Below are positions 3,456-56,874 of a DNA stretch of 56,874 bases, piece after piece. The stretch spans positions 1-56,874 of the IMG/VR virus record IMGVR_UViG_3300045970_000182; one strand, given 5' to 3'. Under the pieces are notes generated by a model. The model was not told the origin of the DNA. It saw only the letters and a list, made by a program, of their open reading frames with translations, and did not search any database. This DNA is from a virus. Taxonomy: Duplodnaviria; Caudoviricetes. A program made the translations under genes and the position numbers. Position 1 is the first letter of the stretch. Each line of letters opens with the position of its first letter.

Positions 3456-3809
3456 TTACATTGTCCAACCTGTTTTTCGGCGCCTTGACTTCCTATATTC
3501 TTCATACTCTTCGTCTGTCGCGGATTTAGTAGGAGCCTTACCACAACTAATCATATATCCGTCCACCCCACATCTCATGAGATAATCGTGCAACATATTA
3601 TCTACACTGCAATGTTTTAAGGCCAAAAATGCCAATGTATTTGCCGACTCGGAGTTCTCATCATACGATATTGTTATCTTAGGTATCTCAATGTGGTTAA
3701 ACTTATCTGTTTTGGCGGTATCTATTACAGCGACTATATCATTTGCCTTACAGAATATCTCTATCAATGATATATACCCATCGGAAATGCCAGTTTGTAT
3801 TGTTTTCAT
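3456..3809 (-). CDS. hypothetical protein
   Basis: 117-aa ORF co-oriented within the operon. Confidence 0.55.
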   Translation of the reverse strand: MKTIQTGISDGYISLIEIFCKANDIVAVIDTAKTDKFNHIEIPKITISYDENSESANTLAFLALKHCSVDNMLHDYLMRCGVDGYMISCGKAPTKSATDEEYEEYRKSRRRKTGWTM

Positions 3810-3816
3810 ATTGCAT

Positions 3817-4659
3817 TTAATAGTTTATTTTTTCTATAGAGAAGGGGTATTCCGCTTCCTTATAAAACTTCTTTCTTTTTGTAAGATGAGTCTTGCTATA
3901 TTTACAGTTGGAACATATATCATACACATTAACGAAATCTTTGTCTTCGGCAACTCGTATTCCTCTACCAATACTTTGTATCACCCTAACAAAACTCTTT
4001 CCAGCCTCAAATAGTATCATGTTAAATATGCGAACAATGTTGATACCCGTTGATGCAACACCGTATGTTGCTATAATAACCTTCCCATCCACTTCCTGAA
4101 CTTCTTTATATTCCGACTTACGATCTTTAGACTTCATTTGTCCAGAAACAAACACAGATTCCGGAATAAGTGACTGTAATAGCTTACCTGTCTCTATACG
4201 ATCCACCAATATAAGCGTATTACCGGTTTCGGATATTTCTTCTATCTTACCTGCTATGTATTTTAGTCGTTTTTCGTTTGTTGTAAGCCACTTTAGTTCT
4301 GTTTGATAGTTACCGGAGGCCGCTGATCCTACATCTTGCAGTTGCCATACGTTTACATGCAGTTGCGCTAATATACCTTTATCCTGCAAGTCTTTTGTAT
4401 TGATTTTGCCTAACATGGGTCCTATACATGCTTTCACTGCAATCTTATCACCCTCTTCTTCCGGCATAGTGCCCGTCAGTCCCCACCTAATAGGTGCGTT
4501 TGACAATGGACCACTAAGTATTTTACGAAGCACATCCGCCTTTGCCTTATGGCAGTTTTCTACTACAGCACCGTCGACTATATAGTTGTGATCATTTTTT
4601 ATACCTAGTGTATAAATTTCTGCAGGTTTATCTATCTCTTTTCTTGTTATAAGCTTCAT
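3817..4659 (-). CDS. uvsW: split intein C-part (35 aa) fused to the C-terminal half of UvsW-like SF2 helicase
   Basis: IYTLGIKNDHNYIVDGAVVEN (intein blocks F/G) then C-HKAKA; helicase motifs GLTGT, STGINI, QSIGRGIR. Confidence 0.9.
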   Translation of the reverse strand: MKLITRKEIDKPAEIYTLGIKNDHNYIVDGAVVENCHKAKADVLRKILSGPLSNAPIRWGLTGTMPEEEGDKIAVKACIGPMLGKINTKDLQDKGILAQLHVNVWQLQDVGSAASGNYQTELKWLTTNEKRLKYIAGKIEEISETGNTLILVDRIETGKLLQSLIPESVFVSGQMKSKDRKSEYKEVQEVDGKVIIATYGVASTGINIVRIFNMILFEAGKSFVRVIQSIGRGIRVAEDKDFVNVYDICSNCKYSKTHLTKRKKFYKEAEYPFSIEKINY

Positions 4660-38379: not shown

Positions 38380-38471
38380 TGGTACGAGCGGAGAGGATCG
38401 AACTCTCTCAAGAACGCTAATCTGGCGCTAAAAGGTTTATAAGACCTCTCTGACTTCCAAGTCTCGCTCGC
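38380..38471 (-). tRNA. tRNA-like RNA with UAU anticodon, long variable arm and abbreviated D-arm
   Basis: GCGAGCG/CGCTCGT-A-CCA; GACT-TGGA-AGTC; GAGGT-CTTATAA-ACCTT; GAGAG-TTCGATC-CTCTC. Confidence 0.7.
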
Positions 38472-52097: not shown

Positions 52098-52172
52098 TGG
52101 TGCCCTGTGTCGGAATCGAACCGACGAATAAAAGTTTTAGAGGCTTCGGATCTACCATTGATCTAACAGGGC
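52098..52172 (-). tRNA. amber suppressor tRNA (CUA anticodon)
   Basis: GCCCTGT/ACAGGGC-A-CCA, GATC D stem, anticodon arm GAAGC-CT-CTA-AA-ACTTT, GTCGG-TTCGATT-CCGAC. Confidence 0.8.
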
Positions 52173-52207
52173 ACGTCTTCATATTATATAAACATTATTG
52201 CTAATCG

Positions 52208-52528
52208 TCAACCGGTGTGTTTATATAAGTTCCATTTAGCAAATACCGCACGCTCTTTATTTGTAAAGATAGGTCGTGTGCATATAGCTGTATGGCCAAG
52301 GTCGTTGTCAGGCTCAAAAAACATGCAAAAATCAATGCCTTTTAGCTCTAATATCCGCGCTTTGCGATACAGGTCTGCCTCATTATATGCGTGTAAAAGA
52401 ATGAGGCTTGCTGTTTTACCCGGATGCTTAAACTTCAATCCAGCCTCATATGTTGCGTGACCAAGCTGCACTATTTTCTGTTCAGGTGTCATGTCGTCCC
52501 TGATGAAAGTGTAAATGTATGGATTCAT
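52208..52528 (-). CDS. Pth2-like peptidyl-tRNA hydrolase family protein
   Basis: YTFIRDDM..EQKIVQLGHA, FFEPD, TAICTRP. Confidence 0.7.
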   Translation of the reverse strand: MNPYIYTFIRDDMTPEQKIVQLGHATYEAGLKFKHPGKTASLILLHAYNEADLYRKARILELKGIDFCMFFEPDNDLGHTAICTRPIFTNKERAVFAKWNLYKHTG

Positions 52529-52893
52529 GCTAATAGATCTCTCAGTTGTTTCATAAGCTCAGGCGTAAAAGTTATTCCAAACTTTTTGTTTAACCATTTA
52601 ATACGATCCGCCAACTCGAGCGCTCGTGTTGCTATTCTTGTTGCAGATTCACCAGCATAGATGGTAGGTTCGCGCAATGTCCAATAGGCTTCGTGTTTAG
52701 CTTTATCGAATGATTGCCATTCTGTAAAACCGTTTGATAACTTACTTTGTTTTTGTATTGGGCTAAAACCGCGTTTAAGGTCGAATCCCCTGAGCACATT
52801 GTATAAAATGTGATCTTGTGCTGTGCGAGATGGAATAGTTTTCCATGCAGCAGCTAAATTTAAATACTCTTCTTTATTGATAATGAAATTCAT
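52525..52893 (-). CDS. hypothetical protein
   Basis: HILYNVLRG...RGFSPI...KLSNG; AAGGA RBS. Confidence 0.7.
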   Translation of the reverse strand: MNFIINKEEYLNLAAAWKTIPSRTAQDHILYNVLRGFDLKRGFSPIQKQSKLSNGFTEWQSFDKAKHEAYWTLREPTIYAGESATRIATRALELADRIKWLNKKFGITFTPELMKQLRDLLA

Positions 52894-52954
52894 GATTGTT
52901 GTCCTTTATAAAATATAATCATTTGTTTGTTTTCTAACCTTACATTGATTTATT

Positions 52955-52984
52955 TTATGGACTTCTGTTTAATACCTACATCAT
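52955..52984 (-). promoter_or_regulatory. leader minigene AUG-AUG-UAG (readthrough product MM*VLNRSP)
   Basis: Strong RBS AAAGGAG before ATG ATG TAG GTA TTA AAC AGA AGT CCA TAA; upstream TTGCTA-N17-TATAGT and TATAAATA. Confidence 0.6.
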
Positions 52985-53071
52985 TTTGGCTCTCCTTTAG
53001 TTAAGTTAAGTATTTATACTATATGTATGATTAACTATAGCAGTTTTGATTCGAATTAGCAACCGGATTTA

Positions 53072-53138: not shown

Positions 53139-53774
53139 ATGTCTATTTATACACAGTCATCTTTTAAACCTACATATCTATATATTAAACAGCATTCTAT
53201 TACAGGCAAACTCTACTTCGGCAAAACTATAAAAAACCATGATAAAATGTTAAGCTATTTAGGATCTGGAAAATATTGGACAAATCATATCACAGAACAC
53301 GGAAAGCAACACACAGAAACACTCTGGTATTGCCTTTATTATGAAGAAGTAGAATGCAGTAATTTTGCCCTGGCATTCTCTAAAAACCAATCTATTGTAG
53401 GATCGTCTGAATGGGCAAACCTTAAAGAAGAAAATGGGGCTACCGGTGGGCATAATGGGAAAGATCAATCAGGTAAAAATAATCATTTCTATGGAAAACA
53501 TCACACAACAGAGACCAAAGGTAAAATTGCAGAATCTATAAGAAATATGCCAGATGATTATAGAAAGAAGTTGTCTGATTCGAGTACGGGCAGAAAACAC
53601 ACCTACGAAACTAAACAGAAGATGTCGGAATCTCACACTGGCCGAACAGGCTACTGGAAGGGTAAAACTAAGTCGGACGACTTTAAAAGTACAGTGAGTG
53701 CTACATTAAAAGGTAGACCAAAGACCGAAGAACATAAGGCAAAAATATCGGCAGCTAAGAAGAAACAGCCATAA
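53139..53774 (+). mobile_element. GIY-YIG-type homing endonuclease with NUMOD3 repeats
   Basis: LYIKQHSITGKLYFGKT...YLGSGKYW...WANL..ENG; HTTETKGKI/HTYETKQKMS/EEHKAKIS. Confidence 0.85.
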
Positions 53775-53817: not shown

Positions 53818-54279
53818 TTAAAAACTATATTTTGCACCAACAGAGACCATATTTCCGTTTAGATACTTAACACGCTCTTGACCCATTTGGTAAGCATAAT
53901 CTGCTACCAAACTAACTTTCTTTGTTAGTGGATAAGATACACCTGCACCAACCAATGCTGCATAACCGTCATCACCGACGCTCGAATCAAGATATGCTGC
54001 GCCAGCTTTACCTGCGAAGGTAAATCCTGCCAACTTCATAACTTCATAAGAACCAACCACGCTGTAACGGTTTAAGTTTGCTACACCATTCGTTGTACGG
54101 TCAAACGCAACTTCTGCACCAACTTTTCCATATTGTTGGCCAAGAGTAACACCGGCGGTATTAAGACCGACGTTTGTTGTATCAACTCCACCAATGCGAC
54201 CACCGCGAATGCCGATGTCCATTGCCGAGGCTGCTGCTACAGATGCTGCCAAAACTGCCATAATTACTAATTTTTTCAT
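53818..54279 (-). CDS. outer-membrane beta-barrel protein (OmpA-TM/OmpX/Lom-like)
   Basis: Signal peptide, alternating amphipathic strands, C-terminal VSVGAKYSF BAM signal. Confidence 0.85.
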   Translation of the reverse strand: MKKLVIMAVLAASVAAASAMDIGIRGGRIGGVDTTNVGLNTAGVTLGQQYGKVGAEVAFDRTTNGVANLNRYSVVGSYEVMKLAGFTFAGKAGAAYLDSSVGDDGYAALVGAGVSYPLTKKVSLVADYAYQMGQERVKYLNGNMVSVGAKYSF

Positions 54280-54579: not shown

Positions 54580-54608
54580 AAAAAGAAAGGGGCCGAAGCC
54601 CCCTCTTT
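54580..54608 (-). terminator. terminator after tmRNA
   Basis: GGGGC-TTCG-GCCCC-TTTCTTTT. Confidence 0.85.
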
Positions 54609-54945
54609 GATTGGTTTGGTTACAAGGTCTTTCTACCTCGCGCTTTGTGTTTCTTAGGCAGCAATAGCGTAGTGAGTATCGTTTGCAGATATTCTGTTTT
54701 GCTTGATTTACAGTCATCGCCTACTGAGTTGCCTTTTTCAATATCTCACGCCATCGATTACCGGAGCAGCCCCATCAGAAACACTCTTTGGTCTATCCGA
54801 ACTTGTCCGTGAATCACGGAGAGTATTCTGGTGTACCAGCCCTGAGAGTTGATGTTATCGTATCTTCAAGAGTGTTTATGGTGGAGCTGGCGGGATTCGA
54901 ACCCGCGTCTGGCTTGCCTTTTCTCCAACGGAATTACAACTATCA
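54609..54945 (-). ncRNA. ssrA: circularly permuted (two-piece) tmRNA; tag ANDTHYAIAA
   Basis: Acceptor piece GACGCGGGTTCGAATCCCGCCAGCTCCACCA (ends 54879) precedes GGGGCTG (54773); tag frame 54686-54654; G3:U pair; promoter TTGATT-N17-TATAAT at 54952-54980. Confidence 0.9.
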
Positions 54946-55063
54946 ATCTATATTATATTATGTCACTAATATAAAATCAACTATCCACGAATGCCGAGTA
55001 GAGCAGGAGGTGCATACACTCATGTATTTATTTTAATATTGAAATAAGTTAACTATAGCTTAA

Positions 55064-56224: not shown

Positions 56225-56874
56225 TTATGCGAAATATGCTTTGATCTTTGTGAAGACCTTTGCCATGTATTTCATTGCCTCGTCATAAGCCTGAGCGCAC
56301 TTAAATGCTGCGTCAATGCTGTGGCAAGTTTCGCACTGGTCGGATGTAACTGGGTGACCTGGTGTGTAGAATGTCTTGCCTTTGGCGTATGTTCCGTTGT
56401 GACAAGTTACACAACCAGTTGTCACACCTAAGTGAATCTGCGTGTGGCTAACTGTCCAGTTGGCAGTTGTGTGGCAGTTCTTACAATCCACTGTTGTCGC
56501 AATGTGAGTAGTTGATTTCGCCTTGGCATTGTAAATCGTATATGATCCGTTGTGGCAGCTATCGCAGTTGTTTGCTGCAACCGATGGGTGGTTCATAGTG
56601 AAGTTAGTTGTAAAGAGTGTTGTGGTGTGGCACTGAGCGCAATCAATCAGCCCTGTTGGGATGTGCGATAGCGAACGACCTACCGTCAAACGCACTGGAT
56701 CGCCGTTGTGGCATCCAATACAAGTTTTGGGTGTTCCAACGAATACTGCGCTTTTGTGACAGCTGGCACAGGTTCCGCATTTTCCGGTGGATAAGTGAGC
56801 ACCGTCCAATACAAACGATGGGTGTGATTGTTCGTACAGCGTACATTCAGCAGCGGACGCACTTAACGGTGCCA
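56225..56874 (-). CDS. multiheme c-type cytochrome (7 CxxCH; 5' end beyond window)
   Basis: CASCH, CIGCH, CAQCH, CDSCH, CKNCH, CVTCH, CETCH with interspersed His; frame stays open to the edge through APLSASA-AEC, a signal-peptidase-like site. Confidence 0.85.
   Translation of the reverse strand, partial: APLSASAAECTLYEQSHPSFVLDGAHLSTGKCGTCASCHKSAVFVGTPKTCIGCHNGDPVRLTVGRSLSHIPTGLIDCAQCHTTTLFTTNFTMNHPSVAANNCDSCHNGSYTIYNAKAKSTTHIATTVDCKNCHTTANWTVSHTQIHLGVTTGCVTCHNGTYAKGKTFYTPGHPVTSDQCETCHSIDAAFKCAQAYDEAMKYMAKVFTKIKAYFA

Follow-up and report, generated by a model that had tools for sequence, protein, structure and literature searches.

The stretch analysed here, called the window below, is a virus record of 56,874 nucleotides (nt) assigned to the Caudoviricetes (IMGVR_UViG_3300045970_000182). 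On its minus strand lies a very short leader open reading frame (ORF) that begins ATG ATG TAG and runs on for six more codons to TAA; it is followed on the same strand by a gene for a 122-amino-acid protein (X), a gene for a 106-amino-acid protein with a predicted peptidyl-tRNA hydrolase 2 (Pth2) fold (Y), and a gene for a tRNA with the anticodon CUA, an amber suppressor tRNA. All of these features, whose coordinates are given in Table 1, had been described together with a promoter-like site and the Shine-Dalgarno (SD) sequence AAAGGAG in an earlier sequence-only reading, and that description of the anatomy was accurate. The same reading had taken ATG ATG TAG as a two-codon minigene within a circuit that senses UAG termination or readthrough and controls both the hydrolase gene and the suppressor tRNA. 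Comparison with related loci leads us to consider it likely that the leader is a translational attenuator gated by amber readthrough, which would switch on X and, by coupling, Y.

Table 1. Positions of the leader, its upstream signals and the features behind it in the window.
Feature	Position	Strand	Remarks
Sigma-70-like promoter site, TTGCTA-17 nt-TATAGT	53034..53062	-	TTGCTA 53062-53057; TATAGT 53039-53034; 9/12 matches, TG before -10
TATAAATA, T4-late-promoter-like motif	53011..53018	-	27 nt before the leader ATG
Leader SD, AAAGGAG	52992..52998	-	7 nt before the leader ATG
Leader ORF, M M UAG V L N R S P UAA	52955..52984	-	ATG ATG TAG 52984-52976; UAG 52978-52976; TAA 52957-52955
SD-hiding hairpin	52901..52962	-	5' arm 52962-52946; 3' arm 52921-52901
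122-amino-acid gene (X)	52525..52893	-	First gene behind the leader
106-amino-acid Pth2-fold gene (Y)	52208..52528	-	ATGA overlap with the stop of X
Promoter of the suppressor tRNA, TTGACG-17 nt-TATAAT	52183..52211	-	11/12 matches; overlaps the last codons of Y
tRNA, anticodon CUA	52098..52172	-	ARAGORN; Rfam tRNA, 59.7 bits

Related loci were collected by searches with X, with Y and with alignments of Y, which yielded 32 viral loci (30 distinct records), 80 metagenome loci and 20 loci from bacterial assemblies; four cultured phages were added. After duplicates had been removed, 116 loci remained, and 112 of them had enough upstream DNA. For the viral set we fixed a pattern consisting of an SD, ATG, 1-5 codons, TAG, 2-15 codons and a stop. 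The window and 18 distinct viral loci each had a single match to this pattern, located where expected ahead of the operon, so that the conservation of a ribosome-binding site followed by AUG-NNN-UAG, put forward earlier as a check, was indeed found. An SD preceded the leader in 19/19 of these loci, and the opposite strands of the same loci gave one distinct match. When fixed automatic criteria were applied to the 112 non-redundant loci, an early in-frame UAG was present in 97, as a leader in 69 and/or as a UAG head within Y in 51. The leader form is here M-x-UAG followed by 4-20 codons and placed before a homologue of the 122-amino-acid gene; in the other form, hereafter the fused form, Y itself starts M-x(1-4)-UAG. 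Fifteen loci scored 'none'. On inspection, eight of these carried an M-x-UAG head (L022, L024, L026, L027, L087, L133, L134 and XacN1), seven of which the SD or ORF-length rules had excluded; that of XacN1 stands ahead of an HD-like domain, at a long distance upstream of the match to Y. UAG was codon 3 in 57 of the 69 leaders and always fell within codons 3-6. The codons between ATG and TAG varied in identity (M, K, Q, L, TEQ and others) and in number (1-5), with TAG constant.

Taken by itself, the window would not have singled out this leader. Loosely defined mini-ORFs (SD, ATG, 1-5 codons, stop) on both window strands numbered 8 with TAG, 13 with TAA and 8 with TGA, indicating that the leader alone is not above chance there; it is the sole intergenic mini-ORF of this kind with a full AAAGGAG. 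The notion of a chance arrangement without function can draw on these counts, such mini-ORFs being as common as expected, and on the proposed promoter, which does not exceed chance either. Given the occurrence of the early UAG in 97/112 non-redundant loci that range from phages to bacterial genomes, beside a neighbouring gene with 35-75% protein identity, we find it scarcely credible. The comparison with relatives thus indicates that the leader is real and is conserved beyond chance.

The same cannot be said of the TTGCTA-N17-TATAGT site, read earlier as the promoter of the operon. A promoter scan of a 2-kb region returned 8 sites versus 8.0 expected from shuffles, so that this site is not above chance, and it was not conserved in the relatives' leader loci that were compared. 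Instead, ATAAATA was found at the matching place in 9/19 leader loci, and TATAAATA has 13 copies on the minus (coding) strand of the window versus 3 on the plus strand. We take this motif, ATAAATA or TATAAATA, to resemble T4-type late promoters, and TATAAATA is listed as a putative promoter. In L001, L002, L010 and L012, ATAAATA is immediately preceded by a conserved inverted repeat (GAGTA...TACTC around a stem-loop), at 60-90 nt from the leader on its upstream side; the window lacks this repeat.

The codons behind the UAG are conserved as peptide. In class A leaders (L001, L002, L004, L007 and L015, all with an M-x-UAG head), the post-UAG peptide is [VI]LN[NH][GS]PP-stop, and it is kept through synonymous changes of Leu (TTA/TTG/CTC), Ser (AGT/TCG) and Pro (CCA/CCG/CCT/CCC) codons. 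Class B leaders read [VI]Y[FL][ND]S[ST]-stop, and there are further short forms that end xPP-stop. In X, contigs from three other runs are almost identical to the window; their leader reads M-Q-UAG-VLNNGPP-stop versus M-M-UAG-VLNRSP-stop in the window, suggesting that the window leader is a slightly shortened class A variant. Since the peptide is kept despite synonymous changes, the frame behind the UAG appears to be translated, and the sole start for it is the ATG before the TAG.

This bears directly on the plain two-codon minigene, in which the UAG would be a true stop, dipeptidyl-tRNA would drop off, and the supply of peptidyl-tRNA hydrolase (Pth) would be matched to demand. Lambda bar minigenes combine a strong SD with AUG-NNN-stop and are functionally linked to peptidyl-tRNA hydrolase, and drop-off of peptidyl-tRNA favours very short peptides. 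The window resembles them in its strong SD, its AUG-NNN-stop and the Pth2-fold gene downstream, and UAG at codon 3 in most leaders would suit such a minigene as well. Unlike in bar, a conserved peptide frame of six to seven codons continues past the stop, with synonymous changes and with stalling motifs, and the codons from AUG to UAG differ in number and identity, as would not be expected of a tRNA-specific drop-off trap.

The fused form argues in the same direction. In phage GAP32, Salmonella phage Arash and Ralstonia phage RsoM2USA, the Y match lacked a usable start, and in each of them an in-frame head behind an SD was found (M-A-Q-UAG in GAP32, M-L-UAG in Arash and M-L-UAG in RsoM2USA). 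The public annotations of these three phages truncate, split or omit the Y gene, which the UAG heads explain. A UAG-headed Y was also present in seven viral loci, including the Acinetobacter phage ME3 record, and in most metagenome and bacterial loci. UAG was codon 5 in 37 of the 51 heads, and 47/51 had no other in-frame ATG ahead of the conserved domain. A UAG head that runs in frame into a Pth2-fold gene indicates a UAG meant for readthrough and not for ending a dipeptide, because this form needs readthrough to make any Y at all. We therefore set the drop-off minigene of the sequence-only reading aside as quite unlikely.

Several related records may be mentioned here. The Arash record (L035) splits the UAG-headed Pth2-like gene into two coding sequences, and an annotated tRNA-Phe about 1 kb downstream of that gene (3801-3875) has the anticodon CUA according to ARAGORN. 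ORF364 of Xanthomonas phage XacN1 (L034, 1928-2803) consists of an HD-like domain, recognised by eye, and a Pth2-fold domain, with an in-frame M-K-UAG four codons before the annotated start. In the match listing, several other jumbo-phage records had no feature under the Y match.

The end of the leader can pair with the ribosome-binding site of X. In the window, the two final codons of the leader together with the 14 bases behind them pair with a region that includes the AAGGAC site of X (-12.6 kcal/mol, z -2.52), and 4/200 shuffles folded as well. Single-sequence folds, in which L027 was not included and L022 was ambiguous, predicted the same architecture in 16 of the other 18 leader loci. 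When each leader end was paired with the region upstream of the next gene, the best duplex covered the SD of that gene in 18/19 loci, with a mean of -9.98 kcal/mol versus -6.32 kcal/mol for leader ends paired with the sites of other classes. Note that the start of the next gene in L022 was placed differently in the folds and in the later comparison of the genes behind the leaders. The arms differ by class and stay complementary (GUCC/GGAC, CUUCC/GGAAG, CCUCC/GGAGG and CUAGUAG/CUACUAG), and the 5' arm begins 10-26 nt after the U of UAG, at -11 to +8 relative to the second stop. Covariation within classes was slight (class A, 1/19 pairs; class B, 4/21 pairs). For 29 RxPP-type relatives from metagenomes and bacterial genomes, aligned with L120 left out for its long insertion, a 9-pair helix had 96.4% of cells paired and 6/9 pairs with compensatory changes; 0/500 shuffles reached that support, and registers slid by 1-3 columns gave 26-57%. 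Given the size of ribosome footprints, a ribosome positioned at the UAG would hardly touch the arm, and one positioned at the second stop or the Pro-Pro codons would cover it. The arm geometry fits a switch.

Pairing, which is the best supported part of the element, would also be the core of an RNA-only device, a hairpin opened by temperature, a protein or a small RNA, with the short ORF and its UAG as by-products of the anti-SD constraint; the CCN CCN codons for Pro-Pro do resemble an anti-SD sequence. Such a device is unlikely in our judgement. The invariant SD, ATG and in-frame TAG stand outside the helix, 15-25 nt before the arm, in 69 non-redundant loci, and the residues ahead of the arm (V-L-N-N, and the R of RxPP) are kept with synonymous changes. 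Moreover, the UAG of the fused form has no role in a hairpin.

We then consider the C-terminal ends, at which a ribosome that has passed the UAG of the gated attenuator might be held. A proline before the stop codon slows termination. The 69 leaders comprised 26 of RxPP type (RAPP, RDPP, RGPP, RSPP and RPPP), 13 with another xPP, 26 of class B (S-[ST]-stop), 2 with P-stop, one of which is the window leader, and 2 others. RAPP and RGPP are described as arrest motifs that work with varied, short N-terminal contexts, and RDPP and RSPP as arrest-permissive motifs avoided in proteomes, in the available portions of PMC12992588 and PMC10951233. Regulatory arrest peptides of the RAPP/RGPP type include ApdA, ApdP, ApcA and Streptomyces upstream ORFs (uORFs), as reported in the portions available of PMC7897499, PMC10951233 and PMC12992588. 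As far as these portions describe them, they share with the present leaders a small same-strand ORF just upstream of the regulated gene, an RxPP-like C-terminal motif (in the 26/69 related leaders) and a stalled ribosome expected to expose the downstream ribosome-binding site. Unlike in those peptides, the motif is reached here only past an in-frame UAG at codons 3-6, the leaders have 9-25 residues and no secretion signal, and it would be the decoding of a stop codon, not protein export, that is sensed. The window leader ends R-S-P-stop and so lacks the RxPP arrest motif; stalling at this end and at the ends of class B leaders is a candidate step only.

The suppressor tRNA has a promoter of its own. 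A TTGACx-17/18-TAxxxT sequence stands at the same place before the tRNA in 12/13 related loci, and the window copy is TTGACG-17-TATAAT (11/12 matches). A tRNA with its own conserved promoter is not controlled by the leader and would be the input of the switch; in the bacterial cassettes described below, the tRNA even lies upstream of the leader. The part of the sequence-only reading that placed suppressor expression under the leader is therefore abandoned. Two other observations concern tRNAs of the related loci. The tRNAs after Y in L002 (3733-3807) and L003 (3455-3531) have odd anticodon loops, for which ARAGORN gave 'ctaa' and 'tct', with CUA in the loop. In L030 (2795-3306), an ungated Y homologue adjoins a tRNA with the anticodon UCA (opal suppressor), and no UGA leader was found in that locus.

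If TAG were sense throughout this phage, the leader could be an ordinary arrest-peptide uORF with an incidental TAG. Phages that read TAG as sense are documented, according to the part available of bioRxiv 10.1101/2021.08.26.457843, and further in-frame TAGs stand in the middle of Y in L012, L016, L023 and L027, whose phages probably read TAG as sense more widely. For the window, coding cover was 90.6% with genetic code table 11 versus 93.0% with TAG as sense, and TAG terminates 13 of the 88 ORFs selected by length. In two cases only, neighbouring ORFs share one frame on either side of a TAG (49142-48873 and 48869-48270; 35213-34980 and 34979-34761); family searches gave no sign that either pair is a single gene, and both were treated as chance. 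In these searches, the 77-amino-acid thioredoxin-like ORF matched only positions 71-143 of its 162-position profile. An 859-amino-acid protein is free of internal stops in three complete genomes of relatives. In the 57 kb of what is probably a much larger genome, no conserved gene running across a TAG was observed. Together with the constant place of TAG at leader codons 3-6, which is not expected of chance use of a sense codon, and with the occurrence of the same cassette in bacterial chromosomes, these results make a sense TAG very unlikely as the explanation of the leader.

Next, we turn to the two proteins that the attenuator would control. X matched phrog_22448 (5e-14) and had no match in Pfam, NCBIfam or PADLOC. 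Its AlphaFold2 (AF2) model is all-helical with a predicted local distance difference test (pLDDT) score of 92; a fold search with it gave no PDB match (best E 0.55) and no usable match in the ESM Atlas. Of the 17 viral-set relatives listed, 15 had a homologue of X behind the leader, the exceptions being L007, where the leader lies directly before Y, and L022, where the next gene is unrelated. The ATGA overlap of X and Y was present in 10/12 loci checked, and in L019 (2605-3315) the two form one ORF of 236 amino acids behind an M-T-UAG-TNKAPP leader. The overlap and the fusion suggest that X and Y very probably work together; prediction of an X-Y complex scored 0.00, which is evidence neither way.

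Y had no match in NCBIfam or PADLOC, and the same holds for X and Y of a bacterial cassette. The AF2 model of Y (pLDDT 93) gave 13 best Foldseek entries, of which 12 were of the Pth2/Bit1 type (3erj, 2zv3, 1q7s, 1rlk, 1xty, 1wn2 and others) and one, 2gax, is of unknown function, all at probabilities of 0.99-1.00; template modelling (TM) scores were 0.71-0.78 for 11 of the entries, 0.68 for 2gax and 0.53 for 1rzw. A profile of the Y family searched against the PDB had a solved peptidyl-tRNA hydrolase as its best match (E 0.0014). PF01981 was matched by 19/23 relatives of Y at E up to 1 (best E 1.3e-4), and window Y had no match to it at E up to 1. In archaeal Pth2 the catalytic residues are a Lys and an Asp. 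One alignment of the Y family with Pth2 placed R-x-D and V-Q-x-x-H-A on the same motifs of solved Pth2 and an invariant Glu72 opposite an Asp; the Lys position is Q or K in the Y family and so is not conserved. Judged from these models, Y is a divergent Pth2-fold protein, for which hydrolase activity is predicted at most. The earlier label 'Pth2-like' thus stands for the fold, and the window protein itself falls outside the PF01981 matches.

The same cassette occurs in bacterial genomes. In 19/20 loci from bacterial assemblies, a tRNA(CUA) lies about 600 nt upstream of Y, and in the loci that were read the order is tRNA(CUA), an M-L-UAG...RxPP leader, X and Y (L117-L135; for example, L122 2326-3378). 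Bacterial Y starts M-x-x-x-UAG in 15/20, the others being L124, L130, L133, L134 and L136, the last of which is cut. The hosts are mostly metagenome-assembled genomes (MAGs) of Chloroflexota, with one Obscuribacterales MAG and one Vulcanimicrobiota MAG, on contigs of up to 1.75 Mb. The neighbours are ordinary cell genes that differ by genome (glutamine synthetase, EamA transporter, ABC transporter and cellulase). Y was present in 2/151 sampled genomes of the class of one host, indicating that the cassette is accessory there and not core. From these arrangements, the cassette looks like a small accessory module common to phages and some bacteria.

For the gated attenuator we propose the following course of events. 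In the OFF state, a ribosome terminating at the UAG would stop about 15 nt short of the hairpin, the hairpin would keep the ribosome-binding site of X paired, and X would be shut, as would Y through the ATGA coupling. In the ON state, the phage tRNA(CUA), transcribed from what appears to be its own host-type promoter, would read the UAG, so that the ribosome would reach the second stop and sit on the 5' arm. There it would probably linger, at Pro-stop in the window and at RxPP or xPP in most relatives, and the ribosome-binding site of X would be freed. Production of X and Y would thus require UAG to be read as sense and would roughly follow the extent of that reading. As a guess, they may handle or clear by-products of suppression, tune or set its level, or back up UAG termination. 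Of the circuit suggested in the sequence-only reading, a conserved leader that would report UAG termination or readthrough, placed before X and a Pth2-fold gene, is retained on comparative grounds, without the drop-off minigene and without control of the tRNA.

Several points weigh against this proposal. All loci were found through Y, so that the counts describe Y-bearing loci only, and seven loci with enough upstream DNA had no gate on inspection (L014, L030, L041, L080, L085, L093 and the cut L136). The z-score of the window hairpin is modest, and the window's own class shows little covariation in the hairpin (1/19 pairs). No consensus structure emerged when all leader classes were aligned together, since their arms lie in different registers; the classes were therefore analysed separately. 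The window leader has one Pro in R-S-P-stop versus the GPP-stop of its nearest relatives, which makes a stall less certain here, and class B leaders (26/69) lack both proline and any known stalling motif. Part of the conservation of the Pro-Pro codons could stem from a need for CCUCC-like bases in the anti-SD. No RNA sequencing run is listed as containing this DNA. Finally, no amino acid could be assigned to the tRNA(CUA), because the non-CUA tRNAs closest to it in the loci share only about 70% identity with it and belong to several types.

The proposed switch shares elements with several known systems. In ermC, cat, SecM-secA and MifM-yidC2, translation of a leader peptide governs a hairpin that hides an SD. 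As in these attenuators, the leader is a short same-strand uORF with its own SD and ATG, the 5' arm lies at the uORF end, the 3' arm includes the next SD, and a ribosome held on the 5' arm would open the hairpin; unlike in them, the trigger would be an in-leader stop read as sense and not an antibiotic or an export defect. The prfB gene for release factor 2 (RF2) is autoregulated by an in-frame UGA from which a +1 frameshift escapes. As in prfB, an early in-frame stop would tie output to termination efficiency, the fused form of Y being the closest parallel, whereas here the escape would be readthrough by a suppressor tRNA instead of a frameshift, and the product is a Pth2-fold protein, not a release factor. 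An engineered TAG in a leader peptide makes expression dependent on a suppressor tRNA (Liu, Qi, Yanofsky and Arkin 2011, as cited in the available part of PMC6412442). That device, as described there, is synthetic, acts on transcription through unmasking of a rut site and uses an unnatural amino acid; the present one is natural and is proposed to act on translation.

Suppressor tRNAs of stop-codon-recoded phages are described in the available parts of bioRxiv 10.1101/2021.08.26.457843 and PMC9523058. Like those phages and XacN1, as far as they are described, the window phage encodes a tRNA(CUA); unlike in the recoded phages, TAG still ends ordinary genes in this phage fragment. The authors of the study on the jumbo phage XacN1 found no target for its two 'orphan' tRNA(CUA), according to the part available of PMC5852040. 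In the full texts searched, we found no natural example of such an amber-gated leader, the nearest systems being the RAPP arrest peptides and the engineered TAG-in-leader switch.

The window has about 38% G+C, with genes mostly on the minus strand, eight tRNAs and a two-piece transfer-messenger RNA (tmRNA). Relatives of its small proteins occur in jumbo phages of the GAP32, CBB and RaK2 kind, and a DNA-level search of GenBank phages with the operon region gave no match. The two-piece (permuted) tmRNA gene lies at 54584-54989 on the minus strand (Rfam beta_tmRNA 132.6 bits, tmRNA_permuted 122.8 bits). A tmRNA is also found 1.8-2.7 kb upstream of the leader in the relatives L002-L005 and L008, suggesting that tmRNA, Pth2-fold gene and suppressor tRNA travel together. 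A homing-endonuclease-like gene with NUMOD3 (53139-53774, plus strand) stands, on the opposite strand, between the leader and the tmRNA and outer-membrane-protein-like genes; in L001 and L002, the sequence immediately upstream of the leader differs. A 153-amino-acid ORF (53818-54279, minus strand) has a signal-peptide-like start and weak matches to outer-membrane beta-barrels (E about 1e-3 to 5e-3). At the contig end, an ORF with seven CxxCH motifs (56225-56872, minus strand) is multihaem cytochrome-like. ARAGORN also reported a tRNA-Ile(UAU) of 92 nt (38380-38471, minus strand), unusually long for its type and not found in Rfam at the gathering score.

We know of no target so far for the amber suppressor tRNAs of standard-code phages, and a conserved and easily testable one is offered to such a phage tRNA(CUA) by the leader and by genes with an M-x-UAG head. 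The finding also ties a new family of helical proteins (X) and a divergent Pth2 branch (Y) to suppression, the same cassette is shown in bacterial genomes, and leader, hairpin and tRNA are together compact enough for use as a ready-made reporter of suppression. To our knowledge, this would be the first natural gene switch that reads the meaning of a stop codon. More tentatively, tRNA(CUA), X and Y may form a self-contained module that moves horizontally among large phages and, patchily, bacterial chromosomes. The tRNA would compete with release factor 1 at deliberately placed early UAGs, so that the output of X and Y would be proportional to failed UAG termination, and X and Y might act on the translation machinery, either as a back-up peptidyl-tRNA hydrolase system for ribosomes and tRNAs left when UAG is not terminated or as a feedback brake on the suppressor. 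RF2 autoregulation and the tmRNA-ArfA fail-safe follow a comparable logic. If this possibility were true, the module would be a natural homeostat of stop-codon meaning.

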